The notes beneath the pieces were generated by a model, which was not told the DNA's origin, did not search any database, and saw only the letters and a list, made by a program, of their open reading frames with translations. Shown one piece after another: positions 24,733 through 51,157 of a stretch of DNA of 64,000 nt (positions are counted from its first letter, which is position 1; each line of letters begins with the position of its first letter). The translations under genes and the position numbers were made by a program. Source of the DNA: a candidate division FCPU426 bacterium (GTDB taxonomy: Bacteria; Oederibacteriota; JAAXVQ01; JAUVAV01); NCBI GenBank assembly GCA_040756875.1, contig JBFLYH010000001.1:736001-800000 (forward strand), read 5' to 3'.

Positions 24733-27700
24733 ATGGCGAGCATCCCTGGCTTGTTTTCCATTTGGAGAAAACATCACCTCGTTTTTAGTCAGCGTATCCT
24801 CGCCTTGCTGGTCTCAATAACTTTCATCCTTCCGCATGTCACCTGGGCTTTCGAGTCCAATACCTTCGCCACTCCCGGGCAATTCCGCTTCCAAAACCAG
24901 CTGCTGGAAATCCCCAAACAACTGGCTTCGATCTCAGATTCATTCCAGGGACAGGGAGACCGTCTGGTCATCCACATCCAGGACTTGCACTGCAATTACG
25001 AGGTGCAAAACCACATTGCCGGGCTTCTGGAAAGCCTGCAGAGCCAGGTGCCCCTGCGGCTGATCGGAATCGAAGGCGCCAGTCTGCCGGTCAACGTGAC
25101 CAAGCTGTCCACTTTTCCCAGGCAAAAAATCAAGGAACAGGTGGGGGATTATTTCCTCCACCAGGGACAGATGTCGGGCGCCGAATACTACGCCGCCGTC
25201 AAAGGCCGCGAAAGCAAATTGCTGGGAATGGAAAACGCCGACCGCTACGCCAGCAGCAGGGAATGCGTCTCGCGTTTCCTGTCCGACGAGACCGGCGGGT
25301 ATCTCATGGATTTGCACGAGGCGCTGGAGGAGACCAAGCCCCGCGTGTATTCGCCCCGCCTCCTCAAGTTTGACGCGGAAAGCTCCGCTTACCGCCAAGG
25401 CCGCCTCCCGCTCCAATCCTACGCCGTGCACCTGGCCGAACAGGCCCGCCAGCAAACGCTCCCCCTCGACGCCTATCCGCAGCTGCAACGCTATGTGGCC
25501 CTGCGGCAGAACATTTTCCCCGAAGACGTGGATCCTGACCAGTTGTTCACGGACATCGAGCGCCTGGAAGCCGTCCTGCGCGCGCCGCTGGTTACGACCG
25601 CCGGGGAAAAAGAGCTGCTAGAGCTGTTGCGCCGCCAGGAGTTGCTGGAGAAACTGCTCAACGTTTCCGCCTCGCCCGCCGAGCTGGCCGAGTTCCGCGC
25701 CCATCCCGAAAAACTGCGGATCGCGAACTTCACGGCGTTTCTCGGCCGTTATCCGGTCGGCGAGGACCTGGATCCCGATTTGTCCCTGCTCGACCGGCAA
25801 TTGCGCGAAGTCGAGCAGTTCTACCGTTCGGCGGATTTGCGCAGCGGTGATTTCGTGGCCAACCTGCTCCGGCAAATGGAACGCCAGAATGTCCGGACCG
25901 CCGTGCTGGCCACCGGTGGATATCACACTCCGGAGATCCTGGCCGGCCTGCGCCAGGCCGGCGTCAGTTACGTGTCGGTAAAACCCAGGCTGCTGCATCC
26001 TGACCGCGTCAATCCGTATTTCTCCCTGCTGCGCAACCATGCCACGCCCCTGGAAAAACTACTGGCCCAGAATCAGGAAAAAATCGCCCTGGCCCCGCTG
26101 CTGGCCCAGTGGCAGGACGCAGACCAGATCGTATCCGAAAACCAGTTGCCGAGGGAAACGCGCATCACGTATCAAATTGTCGATATGATGTTGAAGCTGG
26201 CCTTGCTGTCCGACCTGGCGCAATCCGGAATCCGCGAACCCGCGGAACTCTCGCGGGCCTTTGACGCCGAGGTGGGGAAGTATCCCGCCAATAATCCGGG
26301 CATCCGGCCGGATTTTGCCACCCTGCAGTTCCACGGTGACGCCCTGCTGGTGGGATTGGCCGGCCAGCCTTTCCTGGCCGCGCTCTATCCCAGGTCGGCG
26401 GCCGGACGTATGCCGGGCAAAGCCGTCTACGCCACCACTTTGAACGGCCGCGGCTTGGGCTTTTACAGCGCCGGAGACGCGGCGGTCGTGGCCAAGGCAT
26501 TGCAGCGCGTCGGCCAGCCCCGTTGGCGCCGCTGGTCATCGTTCCTGGCGGACCTGGGCGGCCGGAGCCTCCGTTTGGCCCGCACTGCGCTGCGGCAGGC
26601 GCCGCTCTGGGTTCGCAGCCGTTTGACCGCCGAACAAATTCAATCGACGCTGTCCAGCCCGGTGGTCTGGGCGGCGGTCGCCGTTCTGGCGGGCCTGCAC
26701 CAGGTTTGGACCGGAGCCATGGATTTTACCACGGCCCTGGGAATCGGCATGATCAGCGGAACGTACGGCCCCAGGGCTCCCAATGTCCTCTTTTTCGAAA
26801 AAGGCATGGCCGCCGCGCCTGAATATCTGGAGTCCCGCCTGGGCGGGAAAGGCCGTGGGCTCTACCTCATGGCGCGCCTGGGTCTGCCCGTGCCGCCTGG
26901 GTTCATCATCCAGTCCGAGGTGTCCAAACAGGTCAATCATCTCGGACGGATCCCCCGCAGCCTGATGAAGGAAATCAACGATAACCTCGAACACCTTGAA
27001 ATTGCGAGCCACCGCGAATTTGGGAACCCCAAGGCCCCGCTGCTCCTGTCCGTGCGTTCGGGCGCCGAGCAATCCATGCCCGGCATGATGATCACCCTGA
27101 CCAACGTGGGCTTGAACGACCAGACGGTCGAGGGCCTGGCCGCCATGAGGAACGATGAACTGTTCGCCTGGGAATTGTACGCGGCGTTCATCGAAAATTA
27201 TGCTTTCCACGTGCATCGCGTGCCCCGCGACATTTTCCAGGCCCTGCGGGTCCAGGCTATGGTCCAGGCGAACAAACCCTCCCTTTCACCCGAACAGCTG
27301 CGCTCGTTGGTGGGGGAATTCAAGGCGGCCTTCCATAAACAAACAGGGTTCGCGTTCCCGCAGAACGTCCGCGAACAACTGCGGAACGCCACCCGCGCGG
27401 TCATGGCCTCCTGGGACGCGCCGGAGGTGCTGGCTTTCCGCCAGCGCAACCAGATCCCGAACACCGGCACGGGCGTGACCATTCAGCAGATGGTGTTCGG
27501 CAATCTCCGGGAAAATTCCGGGGCGGGTGTAGCGTACTCCCGCAACCCCTACAACGGCGAACCCGGGGTGTTCGGAGAATTCAGCTGGGCCGAACCCGGC
27601 GAGGCCATTGTGTCAGGCCGCATCACGGCCGGCAGCCTGGAAGACCTGGCCGCGCGCCTGCCGCAAGCGCACGGACTGATGCAGCGCTACGCCGAGGCGC

Positions 27701-30700
27701 TGGAAAAATATTTCGGCGAAATCCAGGACATCGAGTTCGTGGTTGAAAACGGCGAGCTCTACCTGCTGCAGACCCGGAGCGCCCGCAATTTCGTCTATCC
27801 CACGGCCCGCATCCGCAGCCTGGTGGACATGATCCGAGAAGGGCTCAAGGACGAGGAAACGGTCGTCCACCAGATCAGCCTGAAAGAACTGCACTGGCTC
27901 GAGGACTTTTTAAAAGCGCCGCGCATCAAACCCGGCGCCAAAGGCCTGGTGACCATCGGCAAGCCGGCCGCGCCGGGCATTGCCACGGGGCACATCGCCT
28001 TCTCCCATGCCAAAGCCCGGGAACTGATGGCCGAGGGCAAACCCGTCATCCTGGTCCTGGACCATTCGGACAAGGAAGACGAAAAGTTGCTGATGGAAAA
28101 GAACGTTGTCGGTGTCGTGGAACGGGTGGGCAGCATCCTGTCCCACGCGTCGGCCCTGCTGCGGCAGGAGCGGAGCATGAAACCCTGCGTGGTCGGGCTT
28201 CAGAACCTGCAGCTGAACACCCGCGACGCCCAGCCTCATATACTTATCGGCAGGGAACGGCAGTGGGTCGGCGAAGGCATGATGATAACCGTGGACGGCA
28301 ACACCGGCCAGATTTACCTCGGCAATGATATTGCCCTGGAGGACTCCGAAGTCGCCCAGGTTCTCAATGGCAACGACCGGTTGCGTAGTTCGGCCGGGTG
28401 GAAATTGTACGAGCAGATCCAAACCTGGCTCGACCGGCACGCGAAACTCGTGCACGAGGAAGAGGAATCACTAAGCCCCCTGATCGACAAATGGCTGAAA
28501 GACCCCCAAGGCACCCTGATCACGCCGGAAGTCTCGGCCCTGCTGGAAACGATCCGCGATTCCCATCCCAACCTGGTGCGGGCGAAGAAACACGGCATCC
28601 TGGTGGCGACCATCCGCTGCCTGCTGGCCAAGGACACCTTGCCCTCCGAGAAATTCGACAGCGAAGTCGACCTGTTCCAATTCATCGGCTTCTACGCCGA
28701 TGTTCTGGGATCCCTGCCGACCGCCGAGGGCGGCGAAGTGTTCATGCTGCTGAACGAGATCGATCCGGAGACCGCGCGACGCGTGCTCTACAACGCCTTT
28801 GGCATGCATCCCTACTTCATTGAAGCTTTTCAGGCCTTGAGTGCGAACCGGCCCGAAGCATTCATCCAATTGCTGGACAACTTGGTGATCCCGGTCGGGG
28901 AACTCTCCCCCGAGGAATTGACCGTTTTTCAGCGGAAGCTCGTGTATCTGTTCACCCGTTTTTTGGACCAGATGCCCGAAGAACAGTTGCAGCCGTTTTT
29001 ACCCAGGCTGCGCGGGGAAACCCTGGCCCACCTGGCCGCAGAATGGCTGGTGCGCGGTCCGGAGAAGCTCAAAGACAAGACCCGCCTCTTCAGGCAAACC
29101 CTGGCCGCCGTGGCCGCTGACCATCCCGAACGCATCCGGGATTTTTGGGCGCAGGTACGCCGGACCGATTCGCTGCGCAAAACCGACTGGTTCATGGGCA
29201 ATTTGGGCCGCATCGGCATCGTCCCCGAAGCGCCGCAGCCCGAAGGGGAAGGGCTGATCAGTTTCTCCCTGACCAGATTCGTAGCCGGTCTGGCGGGCAT
29301 GTTGATCGTGACCGCGCTCCTCGGCTTCGCGGCGCCTGACAACGCTCTGGCGTGGGTATTGCCGTTGCTTTTCGGGTCAGGCGGCCTTGCGGTATGGTTT
29401 GGTCCGCGCTTGTATTATTTGGCGAGACTGGCCGCGCCCCTGGCCGGACGTCCGCAGCTGTCGGACGGCAACATCAACCAGCAGCTGCAAGCCCTGTTGG
29501 CGGACATCGAGCGCCGCGGTGGCTTGCCCGCAGGCTACCGCAGGCCCATGCTGGCGCCCTTGCCCGCGCAGCCGTGGTGGCGCAGCCTCTGGTCCGGTTT
29601 CCGCATCGCTTCCGGCGCCGATGGCACGGTCCGCCTGCACCCCAGGTTTTTAAACCTGTCCCCGGCCGCTCAGCGCGCGATGTTGACGCATGAAATATAT
29701 GAAGCGCACGGATCAAAACACTGGCGCGCCACCTGGGCGGAATATGTTTCGGTCTTACGCGCGGCCCCCCGCAACAACCCCGGCCATAATCCCGTCAACA
29801 ATCCCGGAACGCCCCGCGCCAGCCTGCTGCAGTCCATGCGCGGGCACTTGGAGACCGTTTATCTGGATCCGTTCCTCGCCATCGGCCATCTGGGCGATGA
29901 CGTGATCGAACTGAAAAACCTCCAACACCCGGATCAATCGTTCTGGCTGAAATTGCGGGACGACACCAACATCAGCGAAGGACTGTTGCATTACAGCATC
30001 TATGCCCAGCATCCCTCTTTCTTCGGGCAGCCGGTGGTCCTGGGCTTCGGGATGTCCGTGGCCCAGGACAATGAAATCAATCTGCTGACTTTCAACACCG
30101 AGCAGCCGGAGGGCGTGCTAGCGGCCGGCAGCGGGGCCACGATCATGAATTTCCTGCGGCAGGAAGCCCTGCGCCTGAACCGGCACTTCCTTTTCAGCGA
30201 CATGGGCAATGCCCGGGTCAGGACCCTGGTCCGCCGTTTTACCCGCAATGTCAGCATTCCCGGCTGGTCCGTAGAAGGGCAGGACCCGCAGGCCCGGCTG
30301 CCCTGGTCGTGGGACGACTGGCGAGGGCGTTTCCTGTACGCGGATCCCCAAACCACCGGAGAGGTCATAGCCGGACAGCTTGCGGATTGGGATCTGCTTG
30401 CCGACCGTGCGGAACAATTGCTCAACCGCCTGATCCCCGATCAACGCCGTTCCGAAATTCGCGCCGCCATGTGGCAGCAGGCTGCGGCGGAATGGAGCAG
30501 GACGCAGCAGCCGCGCCAGGCGGGTTTGGCGGCCTTGCGGGCCGTATTGGACGCCGGACTGCCCCTGGCTGACCGCGCGCCGGCCGCGCTCAATGTATGG
30601 TTGGAACGGGAATTGCGCGATCTCAGGGAGGTCGTATTCCCTGCGGATCTCGACCGCCTGACAACCGCTCTGGCCCTTCCTGGTGCTTCCCCCGCAATTG

Positions 30701-45700: not shown

Positions 45701-48700
45701 TCACGCTCCTGGCCTTGAAAAACAGCGGTCTCGAAGGCGCCCTGACGCGCGAACGGGCCGCATTCCTCCTGGGACACCTGGGCAATTTGGAAGGCTATGT
45801 TCGCTGGCTGCGTACGGAGTTGGCATCGCCGCCTGACCAGCTGGCGGATCGGCGTCTGCATGCCTGGGCGTATCAGCCTGAATCGGGTCTGACTCCCGAA
45901 GAGAGCGGCGCCAAGCTCGACCGGATGCAGCAGGGCCTTCACCAGCGCATCCCCGAAGCCGAACGTCCTGATTTCGACCGCTGGCTGGCACAGGCGGACT
46001 TCAGCCGCGCGGCCTCCAATTTCATCCATCTCTCGGCTGACAACGCGGCCAAGTTGCTGGTCCTGCTCTGGCGGGTGCAGCAACTCGCGCCCACCGACCA
46101 AACCATTCTCGAGGCCGAAGGCCAAACCGGCCTGCTGGAGGCGGCCCTGCAAAACTTCGACGAAAAGGCCTGGGAGGCGCATTATCCGCGCCTTATTCAG
46201 GACTTGCAGGAAAAACAGAACGGGGAACTCAATCATCTCAAGTGGCAGATCAGCACCGAGGCGCCCAATGTGAGTCAATTGAGCGTGAACGTCGTGGGTC
46301 TGACGACCGGTCTCCGGCCTGCGCCAACCGAACCCCTGCGCAAACCCTCCCGCTTCGGCAAACGCGGCCGCAACTTGCTCTTCCTGATTTTGGCACTGAC
46401 CGCTGCAGCCGCCTGGCTGACCTTCTCGCCCGAGGCGAGTTGGGAAATCGCCGGCAAAGTCCCGGCCTGGGACTCGCTGGATCAAACCGCCCGCGCCGCC
46501 ATCGCGCCTTTCTTCGGCGGCCTGCTCCTGTCACCGGAAAACGCGGAACGCCTGCGACGTCTTTCCGGGAGAACGGCCCAGTCGCTGCAGAGGATCTGGA
46601 ACCAAATCCGCGGTTTGCGGTATACGCCCCTGGACTCCCTGCGTTTCGACCGGCGTCTGGAATCCGGCTCCATGTCGAACGTCTATCGCGTCGAATACCA
46701 AGGCCGGAAATGGGCGTTCATCCAAAACAAGCTTCTGGATGAGCGGGACCCCAATCGGCCGCAAGCCGGATATACAGCCGAGGCTTTGCGCGACCTGCAA
46801 TCCGGCATCGAGGACACTGTTAAAAATTATCGCCTCTACCAGGGCTTGAACTATCGCGGCCATGCCATCGCGCCGGAAATCGGGCCGCTGGTTATGGACC
46901 GCAATGGCATCGTGGTGGGGTACCTGAGCGAGGAAATACCCGGGAAGGATTTGGGGACCCTGGTTCGTTTCGGCGCCATCACCCCGGAACAGCTCGAAGC
47001 CGTTCTGGTGCAGTTGCGTGGTCAGCTGGACGTGCTGCACAAGCGCGGTTTGGTGCACGGCGACACGCGCCCTGAAAACGTACTCGTGGCCTTCACTCCC
47101 GAAGGCGAGCCCATCGCCCGCTTTATTGATTTCGATCCGGCACGCGGTCGCTGGACCGTCAAGGACGACCTTACGCTTTTTGAGGAACGGCTGGTCACTT
47201 TGACCCGCTTTGAACTGCAGCCTCAAAACGTCGCCCACATCCGGGAGCTGGTGGCGGATGAATTCGAACGGCAGCAATGGCTCGCGGACCGCGAAACAGC
47301 CTATCAGGAACTGCGGAAAGTCCGCCTGACCTGGCACCGGCTGATGGATCAACTGACCGACACGATCAACCAGGACGAACTGCAAAACCTGATGTGGGAC
47401 TTTCTCGGGCAATTCGATGCCTTGCCCAAGGAAAGCCGCTTGTGGACCCGATCCGACGTGGCACTGGCGAGGCAACGCTTGGCCGAATCTTTCCCGGCGT
47501 TTTTCGGGGAACTGAATCGCCTGCTGGACGAACCCCTGCGCACCTATCAGAACGACCTCCAGTCGGCCGTGACGAACCTTTTATCCACCTGGCTCACCTT
47601 GACCGGGCCGGAATTCGACGCCAAAGCCAGGGATATTGTGGCTCAAAAAGTCAAGCAACTGGCCGATTCATCCCAACTGCCGGCCACCATGCAGGTTTTC
47701 CGGCTGGTGCCGGCCTCCAATGCACCACGATCCATTTTAGGAACACTCTTCGTTAATGAAACGGGCATTATCCGCCTCGACCTCATCCCGGCACTGCTGA
47801 CCAGTTTGGCCAACTGGATACTGCGGCGGCCGAACGCCGAATGGACATGGCGCGTGCCGGACAGCGGCCAGGAAACGCCTTACAGTCGCATTTCGGCGTT
47901 TCGATTGAGCATTCTCGACCAAATGCGGCCCTTCTTGCGCACTTTGGGCCGGGTCAAACGCGCCTTCTACCCAGCCAGCGCCGGCGATGCCTCCACCCTC
48001 CTCCTGGTTGCGGATCCGGACCGGATGCTCCTGGTGGATAAGCTGCCGTTCGGAACCCCGGAGGATTTCGCACGGGTCGAATCCATGCGCGAAGCCTATT
48101 GGGCGGATAAAACGGGCGAAGGGAAGGAAGGCTGGTCGAAGACCAAACCCCTGGAAAATATAGGCGTCTTAATCGGGCCCCTGGTCTGGGACCTGCAAAT
48201 GATCGGCGCCCAGAACATCCGCGTCACGCGTTTCTCGCCCACGGAACACCGCATCCGTTTTGTCTGGGGCCGCACCCCCGAGGAAGCGCGGCCGCGTGAA
48301 ATCCTCTTCATCAGCAACTGCGATTTGGAATATCCTGAAAATTATCCACCTTCCTTGATCAGGTGGTTAAAAGCGAACTACGATTTCTACCTGCAAAAAA
48401 GCGGCGAAAAGCTTCATCGCCTGGACGCCATGGATTATCACCTCCGGTTCCTCAAGGATACCGGCCTGCTTTTATCCGACCTTCTGAACAGGGAAGTCAT
48501 GATCGACGAAAGTTATAAATCCGTACCCTGGCCTTTCAATCTGGAAGGATTTGGCATCGGTTATGGGGAACATAATTTCCTGCGCCAAAAGAACCCGCGT
48601 TACATCATTCGTTTGACCAACCAGGTCAGGACGAACGAGGCCGGTTTCACCACGCCGGAGACGGCTGCCGCGCTCTCCGCCCTGGTCGGGCTGGGCCTGC

Positions 48701-51114
48701 TGCTGTCTGCCGGTCTGGGGTTGGTCTTCGGCGGTTTGAGCCTGGCAGCCGGGGCCGCTGGTTTGGCCTTGGGCGGTCTACTGACAATAGGTCCCGCGTT
48801 GATTTATTACTTAAATGCCCGTCGGCCGGAAGCTAGTCCCACGGGCCGCCAGCAACCCTCTGCCGCGGAAACCGGCATTTCCGATGTGGAACAGGCCCTC
48901 CAGTTGGATCAAACCATCTTGCCCAGGGACCCCAACGAGCCTTTCCGTCAATCCGAGTCCAGGACGGTCCGCGCGCTCCAAGCCTGGTTTGGGGATGTGC
49001 TTTTCGCCGGCGACCTCCAGACCGTCGGACGACCCGGAATCCGGAGGCCGTTCGAAGGCGCCCAAGCTGTTTTTGCTTCAGCCTGGACCATGGCACACGC
49101 CCTGGTCATGCTGATCGCCAGCACGCGGCCCGGCCAGCAGTTGGTCTTCGACCCGCAAAACCCGGACTTGTTGGATATGGCCCGCAAACAGTCTCTCCCG
49201 GATGCCGAAACCGCGGCCGCATTTGCCCGCAAGTATGCCGTGCAAGTGACGCCCCTGCACATCAGGCCTGTATCCAGCCTCAAGACCGCAGGCTGGGCGC
49301 GATTCCGGCTGTTCCTGAACCTCAATTCCGCCTACCAGGAAGACGGGGCGAACCTTCAACCCACCTTGTATCTGCCTGATAACATGCTGCTGGAATTGCA
49401 AAAGGGCATTCCCACCACGACGGGTTTGCGGGGATTGGGGCAGCGCTGGCTTTGGTATGGAAACCGCTTCCTCCTTGGTCTTCTGGCCCGATATCAATCC
49501 TCTGCCTATTTTTCAGATCTCCGCCAGGGGCTGGCCTGGAGCCAAAACCAAATGGCCGCCAATCAGGATTTCACCGAAGCCCGGGCCTTGGCCTTGGATC
49601 ATCTGGGCGGCCAAGAACGGGCCGTTGATTATTACTCCCGCCGGCCGGCCGCGAAGACAGCCCTGAGTCCTTATGATGTCATTAAAATATCGGTCAGGTT
49701 GATGCAAACCGGCGCCAGGCTCCTCGGAGAACCAGCTGTCACACCCTGGCAGGTTGTGGAGAACCGCTTGGACGCATCCCTTCGCGAAGGTGCTGAACCA
49801 GGCATTGAGACTCTTATGAAACTCCTTTCGACCGCCCCGGCCTTGGATTCCGCCGAAACCGCCGTTTTAAGGACCCTGACCGAAGAAAGCGCCGGTTTGC
49901 AGGGCAATTTGCAGCCTTGGGTCCTCAGGGATATCGCTGCCTCCCTGATCGACGGACAAGCCCGGTCATTAGCCGACAGCGGGGCATTGCCAACGCCCTC
50001 GGCTTTGAAACCGGATGAAGAGGTTTATCTGCTGAGTTTGCCCCAGACTTATGCCCGAATGATTGCAGAACTGGACCGTCTGGCCAAGCTTGCCGCGGCC
50101 AAAGCCGGCGCCCAGCCGGCCTTGCAGCCCTGGTTGGAAAGGGTGGACCAGTTCCGCGAGGCGCTTGTAATGGCTTCGACCTTGCGTCCCGGACAACTGC
50201 AGGTCCTTGCTCCTGATTTGGCCGCATCCCTACTTGGCGAAACCCTGGCTTTGGCCGGTGAAGAGGGAACTGCGATGGTGGATTTGGGACAGGACATCGA
50301 TTCCCGTCGCGTAGGCGTTACAACCGGCGAAGTCATTGCCAGGGAAGTTGCTCAGGGCGTGCAAATGCCCAGCAGGGAAGTCTACCAAATCAGCGGGCCT
50401 TCCCTGGAAACGATCGCCTCAAGTCTTTCCCAGTCCCAGCTTCCTACCCGGGGATTGTTCGCACAAGCTTATGAAGGTTCTGTCCACGTGACGATTGCGC
50501 GGCCTGAGGTCAGGTTTCAAACCTTAAGCCGGATGATTATTTCGATATCCCGCCTGCTTCCGGTCTCCGCGCAAAGAACTCTCCATCGTTTAATAATACG
50601 CTTTAATCCCAGGGGTTATCTAGACATTATACTAAACGGCGTCATGGTCGCGCCTTGGTCAATCTTGTTGCAGAATCACTCCAGCCCCCTGGGACAAGCC
50701 TATTTGCGCTGGGCCCAGCAGCAGACCCCGTCTTCAGAAAGCCAATTGCTTAGGGCCATGATCAGAGTGTTAAAATATCAAAAAATCGAAATCGAAAATA
50801 CCCAGGGCATATTGGCAGACTCCCAAGTGTCTGGCATGCGCGCTGACCATCAGGCTTCTTTAATCGCTTTCTTCGAAACCGCCCGCAGAATTTCCGCCTT
50901 GTCTCCAGTGCGCATTGGCCGCTGGGATTCGCTGCCCAGCGGCGTACATCGCGCAGACATCCTCATGCCCGGCTTGTTATCCCAACCAGGCAATATGGGT
51001 ACCTGGGGCGCTCTTATGGATGTCATGCGCGGTTTCGAAGCCATACGCATCGAAAATGACGTTTTCAAACACCGCAGACGTCAGCTGTTCCGCACTTCGG
51101 CACAAGCAGCGTAA
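24733..51114 (+). CDS. Giant (8793 aa) multi-pass, multi-enzyme protein
   Basis: Single uninterrupted 26.4-kb ORF with a signal/TM N-terminus and several recognisable enzyme domains (listed separately). Confidence 0.92.
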   Translation: MASIPGLFSIWRKHHLVFSQRILALLVSITFILPHVTWAFESNTFATPGQFRFQNQLLEIPKQLASISDSFQGQGDRLVIHIQDLHCNYEVQNHIAGLLESLQSQVPLRLIGIEGASLPVNVTKLSTFPRQKIKEQVGDYFLHQGQMSGAEYYAAVKGRESKLLGMENADRYASSRECVSRFLSDETGGYLMDLHEALEETKPRVYSPRLLKFDAESSAYRQGRLPLQSYAVHLAEQARQQTLPLDAYPQLQRYVALRQNIFPEDVDPDQLFTDIERLEAVLRAPLVTTAGEKELLELLRRQELLEKLLNVSASPAELAEFRAHPEKLRIANFTAFLGRYPVGEDLDPDLSLLDRQLREVEQFYRSADLRSGDFVANLLRQMERQNVRTAVLATGGYHTPEILAGLRQAGVSYVSVKPRLLHPDRVNPYFSLLRNHATPLEKLLAQNQEKIALAPLLAQWQDADQIVSENQLPRETRITYQIVDMMLKLALLSDLAQSGIREPAELSRAFDAEVGKYPANNPGIRPDFATLQFHGDALLVGLAGQPFLAALYPRSAAGRMPGKAVYATTLNGRGLGFYSAGDAAVVAKALQRVGQPRWRRWSSFLADLGGRSLRLARTALRQAPLWVRSRLTAEQIQSTLSSPVVWAAVAVLAGLHQVWTGAMDFTTALGIGMISGTYGPRAPNVLFFEKGMAAAPEYLESRLGGKGRGLYLMARLGLPVPPGFIIQSEVSKQVNHLGRIPRSLMKEINDNLEHLEIASHREFGNPKAPLLLSVRSGAEQSMPGMMITLTNVGLNDQTVEGLAAMRNDELFAWELYAAFIENYAFHVHRVPRDIFQALRVQAMVQANKPSLSPEQLRSLVGEFKAAFHKQTGFAFPQNVREQLRNATRAVMASWDAPEVLAFRQRNQIPNTGTGVTIQQMVFGNLRENSGAGVAYSRNPYNGEPGVFGEFSWAEPGEAIVSGRITAGSLEDLAARLPQAHGLMQRYAEALEKYFGEIQDIEFVVENGELYLLQTRSARNFVYPTARIRSLVDMIREGLKDEETVVHQISLKELHWLEDFLKAPRIKPGAKGLVTIGKPAAPGIATGHIAFSHAKARELMAEGKPVILVLDHSDKEDEKLLMEKNVVGVVERVGSILSHASALLRQERSMKPCVVGLQNLQLNTRDAQPHILIGRERQWVGEGMMITVDGNTGQIYLGNDIALEDSEVAQVLNGNDRLRSSAGWKLYEQIQTWLDRHAKLVHEEEESLSPLIDKWLKDPQGTLITPEVSALLETIRDSHPNLVRAKKHGILVATIRCLLAKDTLPSEKFDSEVDLFQFIGFYADVLGSLPTAEGGEVFMLLNEIDPETARRVLYNAFGMHPYFIEAFQALSANRPEAFIQLLDNLVIPVGELSPEELTVFQRKLVYLFTRFLDQMPEEQLQPFLPRLRGETLAHLAAEWLVRGPEKLKDKTRLFRQTLAAVAADHPERIRDFWAQVRRTDSLRKTDWFMGNLGRIGIVPEAPQPEGEGLISFSLTRFVAGLAGMLIVTALLGFAAPDNALAWVLPLLFGSGGLAVWFGPRLYYLARLAAPLAGRPQLSDGNINQQLQALLADIERRGGLPAGYRRPMLAPLPAQPWWRSLWSGFRIASGADGTVRLHPRFLNLSPAAQRAMLTHEIYEAHGSKHWRATWAEYVSVLRAAPRNNPGHNPVNNPGTPRASLLQSMRGHLETVYLDPFLAIGHLGDDVIELKNLQHPDQSFWLKLRDDTNISEGLLHYSIYAQHPSFFGQPVVLGFGMSVAQDNEINLLTFNTEQPEGVLAAGSGATIMNFLRQEALRLNRHFLFSDMGNARVRTLVRRFTRNVSIPGWSVEGQDPQARLPWSWDDWRGRFLYADPQTTGEVIAGQLADWDLLADRAEQLLNRLIPDQRRSEIRAAMWQQAAAEWSRTQQPRQAGLAALRAVLDAGLPLADRAPAALNVWLERELRDLREVVFPADLDRLTTALALPGASPAIALSPREKLFANLSATLNPGQDPARDRILREMYGDLLAARPTWLQPSNQPMLQAALELLLVADPALAEAPAQGKDEAFVQALGKVLEALAPAQAGQVLQLLLEEYRAAWNQIMSYPLGNHKAFIRVLTQLGFRNPSALSHMLDSLPFDFSKASAAELRRNFEATNFAFARAVTYLPAEQQHSILTSLQGRALYTLYAQWLVALSNQGIYDRIFGGVAEPGLLRGMLQETLRSHPDQAQFWKRVDEAGSLDQSGFYQTVAGVKSFSELLRKQGFHLPRDLLPAEELARYARLVREEFKRSPEPTALCFTHAARLVAYFKAQGRNAYVFKKQFPGVEDEHYYVYVEGYLVDVFPDDLISKFNTPEVNQIRSLIRDDVIVVRALSPEVRPYTGTPFPEQLNDEAIARSNLFIALEFELPTVASAEDVEWERSDRQAIQVSPLRLAVAVATIAVLGVFSFLLSPDSVLSTLSIWGAGAGVLTLAGVYAPRLYYGWRLARPRAPVLDPRYLDTQLTRLVADLEKNGGLPDGYQRPRFKVLPRQAIRTSFWKGLRVGYGSSGVVYLHPNFLSLPIPAQRAVLLHEIYEAHQRGHVLATLLELASYLRSAVVYLRPAARRFRRIERIGFTAKADPLARRRQIERLLHEIDRELQQPGSGRLPQMAVISDLHADAKRFSELLGDALRQIAGFQGSLNPDRSIEQQMNEQGLSLKDMPGMIVVNGDLLDRGEDGLRCFNLVQELRRVAPDRVVYIVGNHDLWAAGNLLGIHLPWYRGYEFHGDVEAERLVAQQRRKNPGQVNDFDWWTARLAEYNADQAAWQKDEFGQRMKSARASFMDLYKRVGQGWSEAQKDTWEEFTGNFARIQVKDPAVGLNAIGRTSVAWWQRIHSELMDHRRAREGVADAEELQAWDEAIVLAAQITAAYEERMAAALAEGKWWVRVLQGINTQAYASMEWWCQDWSSHKGWGEALIAELNQRQLYVDGKKVTQANYTRSRIIQDMGQFFLENFNLHVFDAYGNLVTHGMLPVDPDGQIRLAFKGKTYTGREVFAGLAAMSEAVKKSRGDRRKMLETFRLVNDWYSDKTTRIKPMHVLAYLRDIGQHVFQASLRVYNWFTGHNTLATLGMSFRHRDGDYSMFFIDKGMSPRFGGEGSYALVGNGIRFRGFVADRSRAVVDSPLTVTQQALIENPGMPREEYLRLMHRALSEELALLPAGPLAEARKPAREITTEAMLHNRLLDQVFARGSIGDNERDRQVLAAFLVPDHPFKAEAFERLGRLDDEEVLARVDDLLARDQGDSPNVSFGQHAFSPFLQRHLKLRELALHPTSGQRDLRQILFSSMTIAYTPSVMNLMSEKGREVLVKTSIEANYLLLRALAILARDPERLQLTAAQVRELSQYLQSPDVIRELESFREDQALTGLTAPTTVTSLLALSQLYLPADTPEKRASLGRLVALIDQLRAESPLWAEMLQDPTLSAAAQVERIRRLNASAEQAVLPARAELRLSFWRLLAGAAVAVGVGISLSLTLSPDVVVRTVSLWGAASGLAVMAFFAPRLYYVWRLVRPRAPALDPDQAKKQLAELIADLARRSGLPEGYTPEITILPAQTLGSIFRRGFMIAKAEKGRLSLHANFLSLPWPIQQAVVLHELVEASGQGHWRATWAEFRSYLRSRPFRPSYPQNIFANDFTVHERQESGATWNRYRVTYKDTDYFFQVRNDLDARDSQHFRLERLAPDALTQHALDVVLNGLNLQRFRLLRFRHRLVAPRVEAFVMNENGVVVGYLTPYWPGERLSDLVRAKSLSPAQLGQVLRQLHGQLEMMHANRLMHGDPHFDNVLVRLPSPWVPRFLARRFPRLFPVVAHFVNFKPSEEFNPTADLFKFRLLVDRASRETLDGRAAEFIPDLVPRPEVSPLAGRLADAQITAALRREGDRVTVLVVNHRTGATVYQRQFALAPEDPVGTIRDELTYVLRQLGARIDTAGITGWPEAEFNDLHAILWNDLDIKAFSPETSPPGFFTDRADPRAVADAARRLFYETAEVVRVEQDGLVHVNRLGNLSDFETVLGPERLARHLALADMARAEDLRMVFINSTPKGGGVAIMRHGIQRWAELLRLPLRWLVMSPDETGTIFDVTKLKFHNVLQLAQDNPLTAEDTRRLDAWTQDQARRFQQHLAWGNVFVIDDPQPAGLIRLIKQSNPQAKIIWRCHIEFNVEEINRPGTTAHETWKYLADKIGPSDLFLFHEKAFVPAGFESGHMVLQMYPAMVPLDGMNKPLRPIQMDYYLRLFNEIMGEQGQTPLDPDRPILTQIARFDPSKGIPDVLESFRLLRRRLAPFRFLAEWSIPVFHFLAGWDIPLAGRLERRLVDLARYLKPQLVILGNGANDDPEAMPLYNLAQSIKTQPEYARIADDIKVVLAPHNDQLLNAVLRWSRVAFQLSHREGFEFKVTEALQKGVPVIAYRAGGIPAQIEDDRTGFLLEVGDVRGVARRLLWLMLNPFSYRRMSRAAAEETRTNYIIQDNAANLISLGLLLRSNRLTPETLAQASAGRDEHQVTADLREQVMDEAETRFGAGAREAQRGPNWPAGLMPKFRAKVIDEYGRFHPGAAARAILQENIWLLPWVVLTGVATVAAMAVAGQGSALAPLLRILIPSLSGLFYAATFTRSHGPTVVAFDPDEMRYVEIPRTWKHTLQLFGLGLGMAALTLGGLALGSLGLLGLGAVSSLAIGVLTGFAAAYALHFAWNFSFARRLPGLATGSAQPVPKLPPLESVVELTVESRLSHELINRIRANLSDTAHPERARLDQELSALGDNPELALQLLAMSGSIGGIGPLLTDRIEDLGKQAGFRKVVGIRPLYQQVWRQQVTPSQNGGPEQFSLSKVEVGDMLRSALERTQVPGTDQDLTLEVPMYDGRVRKVAVWQETDPKTGTVMYYLDDYAAGEAEPNVFDVVYSGYADKNASARFLGDFEAKKRISMEQSYLLGRAYLALLETLQIQPDAVILSEMSAGTFAIPQVVTDKYQHSPATARARFIFNDHTPLEYAHVVEHKDFLAKYPLAHEVVDLLTDAQGQVHITSLIATLAESVYGVARLHWQTMRNMPAYQRVRDKLRYITNGVNLDFWQWGGFRNWEKLSDEDLLKEKDRARSAMLNLLADRLGRDDAWKTQMAGKRIFNWTRRVVRYKQLYRLLEMVRDPELRRQFLESDAVILFGGRVHQDDTPSQQLVQEFLNEIHAHPELRDRLIFYPNFNTLDMQTIAAGVDGTIMGANEGREASATGFMKVLASGGIVIGSPDGAVPENCVFLGEAQQYANQVPAEGMQFSADPAGANAVLLPYDTIDHEDGGRRSFSPQALVSALALASRTLADPQARVGMMRRALAESPRLSTKRVVREMTSLLRELEQISDSRQQALASGRSEGAVILPTLSYDRLKKFLNFPVGNFVWKTEESKLVPVSRPAGVPEGTLRALWHEFNSLRSLGALDEPVLLFNAMGNPEYNAQPGQSGGYLLGYLRKACSENEHFKFLPKASQDEVLGTLDRLNERVKQAREQGDRNAIIEAHYEAMGLVQEWIQAEVPFLHFEWLRDGIRHYYLNPITSMGGFFFRLLKMQPEYFATRIPGTDQTRGEYITGILRSQEKWINESLETLIWRNAAVYADDPAQLDQAVQRILQETFEIMGQSTSTLAGLVAEMPKAEWNTQTLNTLAVIQNEMQRIQTQNNYLRDVTRVHFGPALPTSAFWAVRRALQRLGDRAAAITVDRQVERLPLLVDPDRFSASLEHLLALALENNAGKIKLSLGQENHHLVITIEDNGSLYTAEALQQATHIPFLATSLVPRNSGLEYLEARQMAEMYGGELQLSQHDKTFVFRLTLPLFTEAGQIVEVPDTQLWSAWVHLTTSLAGAQSEAEIQSSLMQALDDFFGFRRANFYRLNRAPEGDWRYVSTGRYGLLGFSTALNEQPFERPDEKYHLLRRYEQSRLEADQVQVIGNRVDDPRANPRHILKDIFKYKLFDATIQWQYRFFGWLNNDFIASLVGQRISRWILRFTSTAWIQDVNRSVTLLFAPPGESATSMLFILPSRTITAEEEQLLGRITRLAGQAYQRLGRQRLLTQNWTSLAERQPAQDELNALLEQGRVLFQQYRKQIQGVLKPLAKAGEEQKEVAAQLSTFSAETEELLARFFSRADVSPRVPVPETPLDTTDPEAFLEDFTLRINKAQTADEIAGLSRLAIELLDTLAWPQAQRDHLIAVCNQLVRASTENLSNLELLALEQPLAAQLDKLAALPADTLPPLLKRRLAQTRDTLQNFHQRLRLLQGLNPAVFTAFDYVKRLFAARNAPDVLESLFESVLNNTPFAGLNIYSVRPDERGALWYRSLRRSGMFGRSAARNWLALSPRSEKTRALSLAEQGPIEERDSSGSLIYEQGRGPQGFDYLYIAQRHEAPFVDQRELLRDVVRHSALPAPSWLRAFGENVALALHHGVARFFVRMIVFIRPAAVRRVDEILYLPVLDAQEKPQGLMLLNNWRNRQPLFADDAQRAQFLQSLALLRFLTTSHLTALDHQQSLLTSVEELRLVTSELNGTFRSALFGRLSGLQRLLSEGDFLLQLLPQAKTAGLISSRQARVTRRWLNLLPKLPGQLEQLLSRVVEINAVARAQTEAAGAEAEASLNKLESRTDLEPDRPFEGDEQTVLSEFNQRMASAQSSAELEQIAIDSLRQAGNNLLLRGLMLVQLRLAWERILRLQALRAEQQALQEALRALSETFSSLFGQLEEGYAVLGQLGRLETDREKIQAARQQLSELAALYPNVQLFTASLNRVLATRARLLTETDDRLLPVTLPGNQYLLLSDALTSRQPEQELQRIIRYGLFGQLPEYRHLELAQERRDSWPRFALGLTDTLGQLRSGFWKHARRLRRASPFGASLRLAQLRSWSGLIRQAQLDGHEHLLDFLVLLLPEPGVAVTLPAARQQLSALLARGLAERYARESGRPLNPDLAVKILQTYPRIVSHLQGDLSSGALQRMLEPFQADELTLLALITLLALKNSGLEGALTRERAAFLLGHLGNLEGYVRWLRTELASPPDQLADRRLHAWAYQPESGLTPEESGAKLDRMQQGLHQRIPEAERPDFDRWLAQADFSRAASNFIHLSADNAAKLLVLLWRVQQLAPTDQTILEAEGQTGLLEAALQNFDEKAWEAHYPRLIQDLQEKQNGELNHLKWQISTEAPNVSQLSVNVVGLTTGLRPAPTEPLRKPSRFGKRGRNLLFLILALTAAAAWLTFSPEASWEIAGKVPAWDSLDQTARAAIAPFFGGLLLSPENAERLRRLSGRTAQSLQRIWNQIRGLRYTPLDSLRFDRRLESGSMSNVYRVEYQGRKWAFIQNKLLDERDPNRPQAGYTAEALRDLQSGIEDTVKNYRLYQGLNYRGHAIAPEIGPLVMDRNGIVVGYLSEEIPGKDLGTLVRFGAITPEQLEAVLVQLRGQLDVLHKRGLVHGDTRPENVLVAFTPEGEPIARFIDFDPARGRWTVKDDLTLFEERLVTLTRFELQPQNVAHIRELVADEFERQQWLADRETAYQELRKVRLTWHRLMDQLTDTINQDELQNLMWDFLGQFDALPKESRLWTRSDVALARQRLAESFPAFFGELNRLLDEPLRTYQNDLQSAVTNLLSTWLTLTGPEFDAKARDIVAQKVKQLADSSQLPATMQVFRLVPASNAPRSILGTLFVNETGIIRLDLIPALLTSLANWILRRPNAEWTWRVPDSGQETPYSRISAFRLSILDQMRPFLRTLGRVKRAFYPASAGDASTLLLVADPDRMLLVDKLPFGTPEDFARVESMREAYWADKTGEGKEGWSKTKPLENIGVLIGPLVWDLQMIGAQNIRVTRFSPTEHRIRFVWGRTPEEARPREILFISNCDLEYPENYPPSLIRWLKANYDFYLQKSGEKLHRLDAMDYHLRFLKDTGLLLSDLLNREVMIDESYKSVPWPFNLEGFGIGYGEHNFLRQKNPRYIIRLTNQVRTNEAGFTTPETAAALSALVGLGLLLSAGLGLVFGGLSLAAGAAGLALGGLLTIGPALIYYLNARRPEASPTGRQQPSAAETGISDVEQALQLDQTILPRDPNEPFRQSESRTVRALQAWFGDVLFAGDLQTVGRPGIRRPFEGAQAVFASAWTMAHALVMLIASTRPGQQLVFDPQNPDLLDMARKQSLPDAETAAAFARKYAVQVTPLHIRPVSSLKTAGWARFRLFLNLNSAYQEDGANLQPTLYLPDNMLLELQKGIPTTTGLRGLGQRWLWYGNRFLLGLLARYQSSAYFSDLRQGLAWSQNQMAANQDFTEARALALDHLGGQERAVDYYSRRPAAKTALSPYDVIKISVRLMQTGARLLGEPAVTPWQVVENRLDASLREGAEPGIETLMKLLSTAPALDSAETAVLRTLTEESAGLQGNLQPWVLRDIAASLIDGQARSLADSGALPTPSALKPDEEVYLLSLPQTYARMIAELDRLAKLAAAKAGAQPALQPWLERVDQFREALVMASTLRPGQLQVLAPDLAASLLGETLALAGEEGTAMVDLGQDIDSRRVGVTTGEVIAREVAQGVQMPSREVYQISGPSLETIASSLSQSQLPTRGLFAQAYEGSVHVTIARPEVRFQTLSRMIISISRLLPVSAQRTLHRLIIRFNPRGYLDIILNGVMVAPWSILLQNHSSPLGQAYLRWAQQQTPSSESQLLRAMIRVLKYQKIEIENTQGILADSQVSGMRADHQASLIAFFETARRISALSPVRIGRWDSLPSGVHRADILMPGLLSQPGNMGTWGALMDVMRGFEAIRIENDVFKHRRRQLFRTSAQAA
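26830..28330 (+). other. Domain of the giant protein: PPDK-type ATP-grasp + phosphohistidine swivel domain, no C-terminal PEP-binding barrel
   Basis: LGGKG, LPVPPGF, LLSVRSGA..SMPGMM, VTIQQMVFGN, GEAIVSG, QDIEF, LLQTR, SHASA and ITVDGNTGQIY. Confidence 0.88.
29254..29760 (+). repeat. Giant-protein internal repeat copy 1 (TM hairpin + GGLP.GY.RP + LHP.FL.L + HEIYEAH)
   Basis: Clear amino-acid similarity to 31996-32500 and 35170-35670. Confidence 0.85.
31996..32500 (+). repeat. Giant-protein internal repeat copy 2
   Basis: APRLYYGWRLARPRAP...GGLPDGYQRP...LHPNFLSL...LLHEIYEAHQRGHVLAT. Confidence 0.85.
32660..34300 (+). other. Domain of the giant protein: calcineurin-like metallophosphoesterase resembling class III fructose-1,6-bisphosphatase
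   Basis: ISDLH, GDLLDRG, GNHD, GNLVTHGMLPVDPDG, TGHNT and IDKGMS. Confidence 0.75.
35170..35670 (+). repeat. Giant-protein internal repeat copy 3
   Basis: APRLYYVWRLVRPRAP...GLPEGYTP...LHANFLSL...VLHELVEASGQGHWRATWAE. Confidence 0.85.
35716..36330 (+). other. Domain of the giant protein: protein-kinase-like fold, copy 1 (possible pseudokinase)
   Basis: HGDPHFDNVLV catalytic loop; the DFG-equivalent position reads VNF. Confidence 0.65.
36430..38240 (+). other. Domain of the giant protein: GT4 trehalose phosphorylase/TreT-like
   Basis: NSTPKGGGVAIMRH, IDDPQ, IWRCHI, QIARFDPSKGIPDV, GANDDPE and QLSHREGFEFKVTEAL...GGIPAQI. Confidence 0.88.
39090..40830 (+). other. Domain of the giant protein: GT35 alpha-glucan (glycogen/maltodextrin) phosphorylase-like
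   Basis: GGIGPL, FNDHTP, ITNGVN, RRVVRYKQ, EASATGFMK (PLP-Lys motif) and SPDGA. Confidence 0.8.
41810..42240 (+). other. Domain of the giant protein: degenerate histidine-kinase HATPase_c
   Basis: ITIEDNG, SGLEYLEARQMAEMYGGEL and FRLTLP; the N-box is degenerate. Confidence 0.6.
46620..47200 (+). other. Domain of the giant protein: protein-kinase-like fold, copy 2
   Basis: ESGSMSNVYRV, HGDTRPENVLV and FIDFD. Confidence 0.75.
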
Positions 51115-51128
51115 TATTCATCTCCTTC

Positions 51129-51157
51129 TAGACTTCACTTTTTAATCATGGTATGAT
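51129..51157 (+). promoter_or_regulatory. Putative sigma70 promoter
   Basis: TAGACT-N17-TATGAT with extended TG; AAGGAGG RBS before ATG 51194. Confidence 0.5.

Follow-up and report, generated by a model that had tools for sequence, protein, structure and literature searches.

A conserved giant protein of 8793 residues that may tether storage-carbohydrate enzymes to the membrane of a Firestonebacteria/Goldbacteria-like bacterium

Why would a bacterium string a dikinase, a phosphoesterase, a trehalose glycosyltransferase, and a glucan phosphorylase along a single polypeptide, and on which side of its membrane would such a chain work? The question is raised by a 64,000-nucleotide stretch of DNA from a candidate division FCPU426 bacterium (C1:736001-800000 of its genome, called the window below), in which one open reading frame (ORF) runs on the + strand from an ATG start to a stop codon at 24733..51114 and encodes 8793 amino acids (aa). 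The gene is real, conserved, and under purifying selection. Its product can be read, with a probability of roughly 0.55, as a membrane-tethered, cytoplasm-facing multi-enzyme protein that would serve the storage-carbohydrate (glycogen/trehalose) metabolism of its own cell; its topology, activities, and pathway are inferred.

Giant bacterial genes are known mostly as lists of domains from Omnitrophota, where they have been read as predation weapons. The present locus offers a smaller, cleaner, and well-conserved case outside Omnitrophota, and orthologs in three genomes allow domain boundaries, selection, and the gain and loss of cassettes to be read directly.

The gene and its enzyme cassettes

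The original prediction for this DNA had treated the frame as one gene, and the open frame, the orthologs, and the selection acting on it bear this out. An ORF check of the window found no internal stop in the 24733..51114 frame, and the G+C content along it (0.57-0.65) is similar to that of the remainder of the contig. The genome (3.22 Mb, 7 contigs) was scored by marker genes as 100% complete and 0.09% contaminated, and 41 of its stop-to-stop frames reach 1500 aa or more, 13 of these being 4300 aa or longer. A genome of the same genus (G001 = G002) carries a collinear ortholog of 8787 aa; one BLASTP segment, 62.3% identical and with 191 gap columns, pairs it with residues 20-8793. An 8763-aa frame is the counterpart in another genus of the same family (G004), and the locus pckG-nfnA-nfnB ... 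argJ-thrS is common to all three genomes. A codon comparison with the 8787-aa ortholog gave a ratio of nonsynonymous to synonymous divergence (dN/dS) of 0.25. The proportion of nonsynonymous differences (pN) was lower than that of synonymous ones (pS) in 22 of 22 segments of about 400 codons, with pN/pS ranging from 0.16 to 0.69. Selection was tightest on the glucan phosphorylase cassette GT35 (0.16), the trehalose cassette TreT (0.21), and the phosphoesterase (0.25), and most relaxed where the dikinase ends and in the helical stretch that follows (0.65-0.69).

The assembly was checked against Logan contigs, which were made by a different assembler. They cover positions 26000-40467 and 40440-45999 of the window with 0 differences, so that the check for a chimeric assembly, named in the original prediction as a way to overturn it, came out in favor of the gene. 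These contigs come from the sole public run that holds the sequence, a groundwater metagenome that may be the source of the genome and is therefore not independent evidence for its presence. The lone break, at 40438-40469, where no single Logan contig spans, is explained by an exact 32-mer that recurs in the GT35 cassette of a 12450-aa paralog (G000 C2:69160). Because the paralogs are just 26-61% identical as proteins, an assembler mix-up is not a concern.

Eight cassettes or modules can be placed along the chain, as follows (window coordinates).

26794..28353, + strand: dikinase cassette, residues 688-1207; PPDK ATP-grasp and phosphohistidine swivel domain with His1138 in 'SHAS'
31540..31932, + strand: Cys-His-Asp module, residues 2270-2400; C2294, H2326, D2337
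32650..34602, + strand: metallophosphoesterase cassette, residues ~2640-3290; DxH (2650-2652), GDxxDRG (2704), GNHD (2736)
35734..36264, + strand: kinase-like module 1, residues 3668-3844; 'HGDPHFDN' loop, no Asp at the DFG-equivalent position
36820..38226, + strand: TreT-like GT4 glycosyltransferase cassette, residues 4030-4498
38935..41436, + strand: GT35-like alpha-glucan phosphorylase cassette, residues 4735-5568; pyridoxal-phosphate (PLP) lysine motif EASATGFMK, K5246
41923..42234, + strand: HATPase_c (GHKL ATPase) domain, residues 5731-5834
46654..47142, + strand: kinase-like module 2, residues 7308-7470; 'HGDTRPEN' ... 'IDFD'

All of these had been announced by the original prediction in one form or another, and the PPDK-type dikinase stood firmly, with the proviso that it is incomplete. 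TIGR01828 scored 387.9 bits over profile positions 14-516 of 865 (cut-off 843), PPDK structures were matched at E 8e-84, and Pfam found PPDK_N at 110 bits and PEP-utilizers at 27.5 bits. The alignment takes in PPDK residues 8-517 of 874, of which 8-~380 form the ATP-grasp part, and ends exactly at the start of the phosphoenolpyruvate (PEP)/pyruvate TIM barrel; no PEP-utilizers_C match was found across the whole ORF at E<=1. His1138 aligns with the His of the PPDK motif TSHAA and is conserved in the ortholog. By its sequence, the cassette is a His-swivel dikinase lacking the PEP/pyruvate domain of PPDK. Since the barrel is absent, it is not a PPDK, and its phosphate must go to some other acceptor.

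The phosphoesterase was retained in its general sense and lost its specific label. Metallophos matched residues 2646-2758 at 32.2 bits (cut-off 21.5), the three metal-binding motifs are all conserved in the ortholog, and the cassette as a whole is 72-82% identical to its counterpart there. Class III fructose-bisphosphatase (FBPase), as had been proposed, found only a faint match: FBPase_2 reached just 13.5 bits (E 0.022, profile 377-443 of 639, cut-off 27), and no NCBIfam FBPase family matched. Homologs of this ~680-aa cassette occur in six other long proteins at 36-47% identity. One of them (P0031, 36%) is a 1566-aa protein from an Omnitrophota metagenome-assembled genome annotated as triose-phosphate isomerase, a fusion that hints at sugar-phosphate chemistry. 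As judged from these homologs, the cassette travels among long proteins of different phyla, beside sugar-phosphate enzymes.

The GT4 trehalose enzyme was upheld by TreT_GT1 (101.3 bits) and Glycos_transf_1 (61.6 bits), both over their cut-offs. The best structures include the synthase TreT (2x6q, E 2.4e-40) and a 'trehalose phosphorylase/synthase' (6zj4, E 8.7e-31), while NF041139 gave 164 bits against a cut-off of 775. The cassette is 80-86% identical to that of the ortholog. It may work as a synthase or as a phosphorylase, the predicted phosphorylase being one of these two options. The GT35 glucan phosphorylase was likewise recovered in divergent form. Pfam Phosphorylase scored 40.8 bits (cut-off 27) over profile positions 483-581 of 713 only, and TIGR02094 gave 70.5 bits, under its cut-off of 191.7. 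The motifs EASATGFMK, FGGR, and PDGA align with those of 4l22 and 4bqe and are identical in the ortholog, whose cassette is 83-92% identical; the copy in the 12450-aa paralog is 51-61% identical. Among 15 genomes of the order, the cassette is present in 5 and only inside giant frames. It is, as far as its motifs tell, a divergent member of the alpha-glucan phosphorylase family with the PLP lysine in place.

The remaining modules are less sharply defined. HATPase_c was confirmed at 30.6 bits (cut-off 26.4); the GAF-like regions predicted alongside it found no family match. Family searches of the ORF returned no HisKA-type domain at E<=1 and no receiver or other output domain. The two predicted kinase folds are mutual internal repeats (residues 3668-3844 against 7308-7470, 35% identity, E 9e-23), and both keep in the ortholog the HGDxxxxN loop typical of APH/Kdo-type kinases. 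The metal-binding DFG-equivalent Asp is present in module 2 ('IDFD') and lacking in module 1 ('VNFK'). Region 3650-4030 found no match at E<=0.001 among shorter proteins. C2294, H2326, and D2337 of the Cys-His-Asp module are all kept in the ortholog, but its fold was not confirmed: an Atlas search placed a Transglut_core3 cluster at rank 30 (score 0.91), a lead only, and a transglutaminase/papain-like fold is possible.

Taken by sequence, the cassettes belong to named families, and the catalytic motifs that were checked are intact, save the DFG-equivalent Asp of kinase-like module 1. In total, eight Pfam families score over their cut-offs, and six domain types, among them the dikinase, metallophosphoesterase, GT4, GT35, and HATPase, can be told apart. 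The genome also holds an ordinary PPDK (923-aa frame), a TreT-like gene, and GlgP, so the cassettes of the giant protein are extra, diverged copies.

A family of giant proteins and its place in the membrane

The enzyme cassettes are framed by two conserved ends. An N-terminal domain marked by VIHIQDLHC...GIEGA, which the original prediction had noticed, is real and proved to be the hallmark of a family.

24775..24852, + strand: N-terminal signal-like hydrophobic helix, residues 15-40; basic n-region, 12-residue h-region, Pro at -6, 'TWA/FE'
24853..26517, + strand: family head, TIKI/erythromycin-esterase/ChaN-like, residues ~41-595; invariant D84-x-H86, C87, E114, G395-G396-x-H398
48874..51111, + strand: family C-terminal domain (tail), residues 8048-8793; basic patch, then ...SAQAA-COOH

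The first ~600 residues are common to nine other ORFs of the genome, among them frames of 12551, 12450, 10037, 6158, 2613, 2248, 1271, and 1136 aa (the 1136-aa one truncated where its contig stops), with head identities of 26-41% in the paralog alignment (A1) and 30-47% by fragment BLAST. The suggested search for relatives with the same N-terminal domain and different cargo succeeded. The 6158-aa paralog carries two cytidylate kinase domains, the 10037-aa paralog carries GNAT, methyltransferase, and HAD domains, and the 2613-aa paralog has almost no sequence between head and tail. The tail, i.e., the last ~750 residues, is shared with the 2613-aa and 12450-aa proteins and two contig-truncated paralogs. 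A 5061-aa relative from a metagenome keeps the head, dikinase, hairpin module, TreT, HATPase region, and tail and is without the phosphoesterase, kinase-like, and GT35 cassettes, which shows that cassettes are gained and lost as blocks. There is, then, a paralogous family with a common head, a common tail, and variable cargo. Two tandem same-strand pairs were also seen, each gene with its own head: the 12450-aa gene followed by the 2613-aa gene, and the 6158-aa gene followed by the 2248-aa gene (G000 C2:52442-97805 and C3:389904-415210). Giant frames of 6812 and 4323 aa fill nearly all of the short contigs C4 and C6 and continue past the contig end, where both show the same peptide; they have the look of a single family gene assembled twice or in variants.

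The head follows the order closely. Its profile has 11 matches in the genome of the giant gene. The search of 14 further genomes of the order was positive in 14 of 14, with 7-38 matches apiece and in frames as long as 13678 aa; 16 genomes from other families of the same phylum gave none. In a collection of species representatives, 118 of 135 head pattern matches were confirmed. Head-bearing records are titled Candidatus (Ca.) Firestonebacteria, Ca. Goldiibacteriota, or 'uncultured bacterium', and the lineage of the giant gene is Firestonebacteria/Goldbacteria-like, not Omnitrophota. Distant relatives of the head (25-31% identity) occur in records titled Omnitrophota, Planctomycetia, and Elusimicrobia. 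In all 10 Omnitrophota- or Planctomycetia-titled loci that were checked (among L076-L089), the homolog is a stand-alone ORF of 526-575 aa; at a distant 'uncultured bacterium' locus (L083), it lies in a frame of more than 3900 aa. At two Omnitrophota loci, L081 (9845-11548) and L084 (9848-11455), the stand-alone head is followed after 3 bases by an ORF of 835 aa or 1444 aa, and neither ORF showed a Pfam family or similarity to the giant protein.

What the head does was approached through its model and its invariant residues. The AF2 model, built on nine paralogs, has a pLDDT of 80 and a pTM of 0.73. Structure comparison with VIA, which aligns every representative chain and has a stated noise level of Z 7-8, matched ChaN (2g5g, Z 8.5, 201 residues aligned, root-mean-square deviation 6.5), EreC (6xcq, Z 7.9), the Ere-like 2qgm (Z 7.9), HopBA1 (5t09, Z 7.7), PMT (2ebf, Z 6.2), and RRSP (5w6l, Z 6.0). 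Unrelated Rossmann-like folds reach Z 7-7.9, and uroporphyrin-III methyltransferase (1v9a) ties EreC and 2qgm at 7.9. Foldseek placed EreC (6xcs) and Bcr135 first (best E 7.7e-3, probability 0.97). By sequence, the Pfam search gave only chance-level rows, and the head profile had no match among PDB sequences. As the Z values lie at noise level and Rossmann-like folds tie with them, an assignment by fold only is moderate. It is strengthened by the motif and its spacing. D84-x-H86, E114, and H398 are invariant in nine of nine paralogs and lie right behind model strands 78-84, 110-113, and 389-395. The 28 residues from His to Glu equal the spacing in Bcr135 and RRSP, with Asp instead of Glu as the first acid. 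The portions of PMC6254334 that bear on this list ChaN, EreC, Bcr135, HopBA1, PMT, and RRSP as TIKI superfamily and describe a 2His/2-Glu motif, with essential His/Glu pairs H85/E113 in Bcr135 and H3902/E3930 in RRSP. Fold and motif together make it probable that the head works as a hydrolase of this superfamily, which could be an esterase or a peptidase.

The tail is a rarity. Its profile gave 23 matches at E<=1e-3 among 1.84 billion cluster representatives, and 18 of these 23 end no more than 10 residues from the C-terminus of the matched protein. The AF2 model of the tail (pLDDT 73.8) found no credible fold match (best VIA Z 6.5, best Foldseek E 0.053, no match for the profile in the PDB). 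The giant protein ends in ...RRQLFRTSAQAA, and family ends in general (window 51076-51111; loci L015-L086) show a basic patch and then ...[S/Q/G]AA-COOH. Among the frames of at least 1000 aa in the genome, 8 of 111 end in Ala-Ala. All 8 belong to the long frames of this group; the head is present in seven, and the 6963-aa frame has no head match. The corresponding count for frames of 300-999 aa is 50 of 2565. In other genomes, the Ala-Ala end was found in 19 of 26 long head-bearing ORFs (at least 1000 aa, end visible) and in none of 10 stand-alone forms. The tmRNA tag of the organism is AEPEFALAA, and proteases of the ClpX and Tsp types read the Ala-Ala carboxy-terminus of ssrA-tagged proteins. 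The family end may be an ssrA-like degron or recognition tail, which offers a lead on turnover. In the same genome, some 20 other long frames (at least 1000 aa, the longest 3185 aa), which are unrelated to this family, end in a KKVA[LI]I[RK]-COOH-like motif, which suggests, by sequence, another large-protein family with a common C-terminal signal.

Between head and tail, the chain is studded with hydrophobic segments, as had been predicted; 16 hydrophobic clusters were counted in the giant protein and up to 36 in a paralog. Those that could be characterized as transmembrane (TM) elements are listed below.

26638..26763, + strand: hydrophobic segment behind the head, residues 636-677; one clear TM helix (638-660) and a short Gly-rich stretch
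29257..29769, + strand: hairpin anchor module 1, residues 1509-1679
31996..32505, + strand: hairpin anchor module 2, residues 2422-2591
35191..35679, + strand: hairpin anchor module 3, residues 3487-3649
38485..38865, + strand: hydrophobic cluster of about four TM helices, residues 4585-4711
46369..46431, + strand: TM helix, residues 7213-7233; 5 Lys/Arg before and 1 after, perhaps paired with another, weak hydrophobic stretch
48655..48813, + strand: last hydrophobic hairpin, residues 7975-8027

Each hairpin module consists of two TM helices, a 'PRLYY' motif, and a domain of ~110 aa, and eight aligned copies are 39-53% identical to the first. Their charges are distributed very unevenly: the loops hold 3 Lys/Arg in total, as compared with 29 in the 20 residues that follow the second helix and 15 in those that lead up to the first. 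The loops usually carry Asp or Glu. The same charge pattern recurs in the 45-60-residue hydrophobic clusters of all seven full-length family proteins examined. By the positive-inside rule, both flanks of the hairpins are predicted to be cytoplasmic, and the cassettes between them would therefore be cytoplasmic too, so that the cargo would face the producer's cytoplasm. For small hairpin proteins it is established that a hairpin whose outer loop is tiny can enter the membrane with no large domain carried across, and the same may hold here. On the N-terminal side of the cargo, the segment behind the head is conserved and is stronger in the ortholog (638-677, score 1.78-1.89). In the signal-like helix, positions -3 and -1 are occupied by small residues and an invariant Phe comes next; P34, A39, and F40 are invariant in nine of nine paralogs, and 1-4 Lys/Arg precede the helix and 0-2 follow it; cleavage at 'TWA/FE' would be expected from this pattern. 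A reading of 'HEIYEAH' in the hairpin module as a zincin protease was tried and dropped: across the eight copies, neither the His nor the first Glu is kept throughout, and the PDB profile match is just at chance level (E 0.78).

Parts of the chain carry no family match.

28561..29193, + strand: helical repeat copy a, residues 1277-1487
29830..30612, + strand: conserved region of unknown fold, residues 1700-1960
30811..31461, + strand: helical repeat copy b, residues 2027-2243
42280..46332, + strand: ~1350 aa without family match, residues 5850-7200; site of the supposed 'GAF-like' regions

The two helical repeat copies are 26% identical (E 3.9e-13), and copy a had no family match in Pfam. Residues 1700-1960 gave no Pfam match and no usable Atlas match, and within them residues 1801-1900 are 82% identical to the ortholog. 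In residues 5850-7200, the family search gave nothing better than E 0.019, and identity to the ortholog is 54-75%.

The surroundings of the gene added little. Promoter and terminator scans at both ORF ends gave counts not above those of shuffled sequences, and Rfam and tRNA scans of the window gave no match. The 1213-aa ORF upstream of pckG (window 16559-20200) matched no Pfam family at E<=0.001. The G+C content drops from ~0.60 to 0.45-0.49 just past the giant gene (window 50001-52000) and again at 58001-62000, which may mark foreign or intergenic-rich DNA.

Weighing the readings

In the favored reading, the ORF would give a single very long inner-membrane protein of the producer, a member of a lineage-specific 'head - cargo - tail' family. 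The signal-like helix would put the TIKI/erythromycin-esterase-like hydrolase head on the periplasmic side, and one TM helix behind the head would return the chain to the cytoplasm. The other ~8100 residues would be cytoplasmic and pinned at intervals by hydrophobic hairpins with very short outer loops, which, as their charge bias suggests, could insert from inside with no large domain translocated. The enzyme cassettes between the anchors would form a storage-carbohydrate set. The dikinase would hand phosphate to some acceptor other than pyruvate/PEP, the GT35 and TreT cassettes would carry out glucan phosphorolysis and the formation or cleavage of trehalose, and the phosphate trio of dikinase, kinase-like modules of the small-molecule type, and phosphoesterase would act on the same substrates or on one another, with a GHKL ATPase also aboard. 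This comes close to the fallback of the original prediction, a membrane-bound metabolon of the cell's own gluconeogenesis; the part of it that drew on pckG and nfnAB is carried by synteny in three genomes. Their position fits a central-carbon role, but it is weak evidence because the genomes are close kin and a 296-bp AT-rich spacer lies between nfnB and the giant gene.

Several points weigh against this reading. The topology is derived from hydropathy and positive-inside charge counts, a crude approach. Paralogs differ in how many hydrophobic segments separate head from cargo (0 in the 6158-aa protein, 1 in the present giant and the 10037-aa protein, and 2-4 in others), so that any side assigned to the head, as compared with the cargo, is tentative. 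The N-terminus resembles a classical cleavable signal peptide, and if residues 636-677 were a hairpin, the cargo would lie outside; such an all-outside topology stays formally conceivable. The pathway is a proposal drawn from the co-occurrence of domains. By sequence, the GT35 match is limited to the C-terminal half and falls below NCBIfam cut-offs. Pfam is weak on the kinase-like modules that the original prediction had called kinase folds (Pkinase 21.8 and 15 bits, E 1.4e-4 and 0.016, cut-off 31.7; APH 21.2 bits, E 2.8e-4, cut-off 23.2). About 40% of the protein has no family assignment. Finally, no RNA run is listed among the public runs that hold the sequence.

The least improbable alternative, and still an unlikely one, keeps the protein in its own cell and makes it a polyprotein that is cut by the head, the Cys-His-Asp module, or a cell protease into hairpin-anchored enzymes, the gene being a device for co-expression. 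Two protease-like candidates are at hand, namely, the head, whose 2His/2-acid motif is essential in the TIKI-family endopeptidase RRSP, and the conserved Cys-His-Asp module. Repeated anchor modules, moreover, flank the cassettes, which come and go as whole blocks. West-Roberts et al. suggest, in a passage of their preprint, something similar for the N-terminal C39/S8 peptidases of Omnitrophota giants. Yet no cleavage-site motif was found, the 'HEIYEAH' of the anchor modules is not invariant and hence no zincin, and TIKI/Ere domains are esterases as often as proteases. The head, if it is periplasmic, could not reach junctions in the cytoplasm.

The effector reading, with which the original prediction had led, comes next and is improbable. 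It holds that the protein, with conserved arms and variable cargo like those of MARTX, is delivered and inserted into prey or host, where it would mobilize glycogen and trehalose. The signal-peptide-like N-terminus, the conservation of head and tail around variable cargo, the presence of the toxin/effector domains HopBA1, PMT, and RRSP among the fold neighbors of the head, and the large expansion of paralogs (7-38 copies per genome) are all in its favor; the target cytosol would supply the enzyme cofactors, and related Omnitrophota giant proteins have been read as predation tools in parts of the literature consulted. Several points speak against it. The hairpins are charged as would suit insertion into the producer membrane with the cargo inside, and an exported chain would have to keep its 16 hydrophobic clusters (up to 36 in a paralog) from being captured there. 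The ORF showed no domain for secretion, pore formation, or translocation, and no secretion genes adjoin it. The cargo enzymes require ATP, NDP-sugar, or inorganic phosphate, and the cargo of paralogs is of a housekeeping type (cytidylate kinase, GNAT, methyltransferase, HAD). With a genome of 3.2 Mb that is 100% complete and has an ordinary PPDK, TreT-like enzyme, and GlgP, the organism does not look host-dependent, and the gene sits in a stable, vertically inherited housekeeping locus.

It is less probable still that the chain is a signaling or regulatory scaffold. Sensing would then fall to the head on the periplasmic side, and phosphate would be relayed by the GHKL ATPase, the kinase-like modules, and the dikinase; the sugar enzymes would serve as outputs under regulation or as binding modules that have degenerated. 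One chain does bring together HATPase_c, both kinase-like modules, and a phosphohistidine domain, kinase-like module 1 is without the DFG-equivalent Asp, and Nielsen & Lui, in a section of their preprint, count a signal-transduction module among the two largest domain communities of giant proteins. However, no HisKA, receiver, or other output domain was found in the ORF, and the strongest purifying selection falls on the sugar enzymes (pN/pS 0.16-0.25), whose catalytic motifs are intact.

An assembly chimera or decaying pseudogene, to which a metagenome assembly with a 32-mer shared between paralogs might point, is close to excluded by the full-length collinear orthologs in two other genomes, the purifying selection in every segment, the base-for-base agreement of the other assembler's contigs, and the distance between paralogs (26-61% identical as proteins), too great for merging.

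A bolder version of the membrane-tethered reading is, at present, a long shot. It envisages an order-wide and so far undescribed 'head - cargo - tail' system, in which each cell would have 7-38 giant inner-membrane proteins with an active periplasmic TIKI-type head, an ssrA-like AA degron, and cytoplasmic cassettes on YidC-type hairpins. In the present protein, a single polypeptide would then form a machine that phosphorylates glucan reversibly: the PPDK-derived dikinase would phosphorylate storage glucan, as the plant glucan, water dikinase does, the GT35 and TreT cassettes would convert it to glucose-1-phosphate and trehalose, and the metallophosphoesterase would strip off phosphate. Through its head and AA tail, the activity or turnover of the machine would be linked to what happens outside the membrane and to proteolysis of the ClpXP type.

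The hallmarks of the family can be tested: a TIKI-type head with an intact motif, inward-biased hairpin anchors, and a rare tail with an ssrA-like end. At 8.8 thousand amino acids (kaa) and with excisable cassettes, the protein brings ordinary expression and assay work within reach. If it is true that the cargo faces the producer's cytoplasm, at least this branch of giant proteins would consist of membrane-tethered enzyme strings and not of weapons, and the interpretation of the class would change.

Comparison with known systems

The closest relatives in kind are the giant proteins of Omnitrophota. In the parts of their 2026 preprint that deal with these, Nielsen & Lui describe membrane-anchored 'multi-enzyme metabolic cluster' proteins with a sugar-metabolism module and read the 46% of long proteins that have TM segments only as membrane-anchored with a cytoplasmic bulk. 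A figure legend in the 2023 preprint by West-Roberts et al. names PPDK_N and HATPase_c among recurrent giant-protein domains, and a passage there considers the predicted 'extracellular' placement of such enzymes unlikely. The present protein is like these giants in being a very long single ORF tiled by distinct cytoplasmic-type enzyme domains, none of which dominates, with TM helices along the chain (about one cluster per several hundred residues), many such genes per genome, and a sugar-metabolism theme joined to HATPase_c and PPDK_N. Many Pfam families tile one membrane-anchored chain, which is what defines the 'multi-enzyme metabolic cluster', albeit below the 10-kaa entry and outside the phylum. 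It differs in size (8.8 kaa, under both the 10-kaa and the 30-kaa thresholds), in lineage (relatives titled Firestonebacteria/Goldiibacteriota), and in having its own TIKI/Ere-like head, repeated hairpin modules, rare C-terminal domain, and ...AA terminus, whereas SecA_DEAD, C39, and S8 domains were not found in this ORF. Compared with Archaeovorin-type proteins, whose hallmarks are a SecA DEAD domain, a GH, peptidase, and NUDIX set, and more than 30 kaa, its 8793 aa gave no SecA_DEAD, GH, NUDIX, C39, or S8 match. It is, therefore, a giant protein of the 'multi-enzyme metabolic cluster' kind that is distinct in size, lineage, domains, and family hallmarks. The family was not found described in the literature searched, including portions of PMC12057145 and PMC7031533, and the supplementary catalogues of both giant-gene preprints may hold relatives.

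The terminal regions invite a comparison with MARTX toxins. In these, conserved terminal regions also surround variable enzyme cassettes, and a TIKI-family domain occurs in the same protein; there, however, this domain (RRSP) is cargo, and here it is the conserved head. The glycine-rich repeats, cysteine protease autoprocessing domain, and type I secretion system of MARTX were not found here, and MARTX cargo is toxic, whereas that of the giant protein is metabolic.

As regards the head itself, its model appears to share with TIKI, TraB/PrgY, erythromycin esterase, and ChaN proteins a parallel beta-sheet core with flanking helices. As in the superfamily, an acid-x-His stands at a strand end, a Glu follows 28 residues on at the next strand end, and a second His comes after Gly-Gly. 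TraB/PrgY-type proteins also link such a domain to TM helices. Unlike the superfamily, the head has no sequence-level match, Asp in place of the first Glu, a helical insertion of ~270 residues between the motifs, and thousands of residues of cargo fused to it.

The dikinase resembles PPDK in its ATP-grasp and mobile phosphohistidine domains (residues 8-517), with the catalytic His in place, and differs from it in the absence of the PEP/pyruvate TIM-barrel domain. Other dikinases with a swiveling His are PEP synthase; glucan, water dikinase; and rifampin phosphotransferase. Compared with glucan, water dikinase, no carbohydrate-binding module was detected in the giant ORF. In plants, transitory starch is broken down by glucan, water dikinase, phosphoglucan phosphatase, and plastidial phosphorylase as separate proteins. 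By analogy, the giant protein likewise combines a His-swivel dikinase, a phosphatase, and a GT35 phosphorylase, although the plant phosphatase is a dual-specificity enzyme and the one here is a metallophosphoesterase. With its truncated dikinase next to a glucan phosphorylase, a trehalose transferase, and a phosphatase, the protein gives a concrete lead toward glucan phosphorylation in bacteria.

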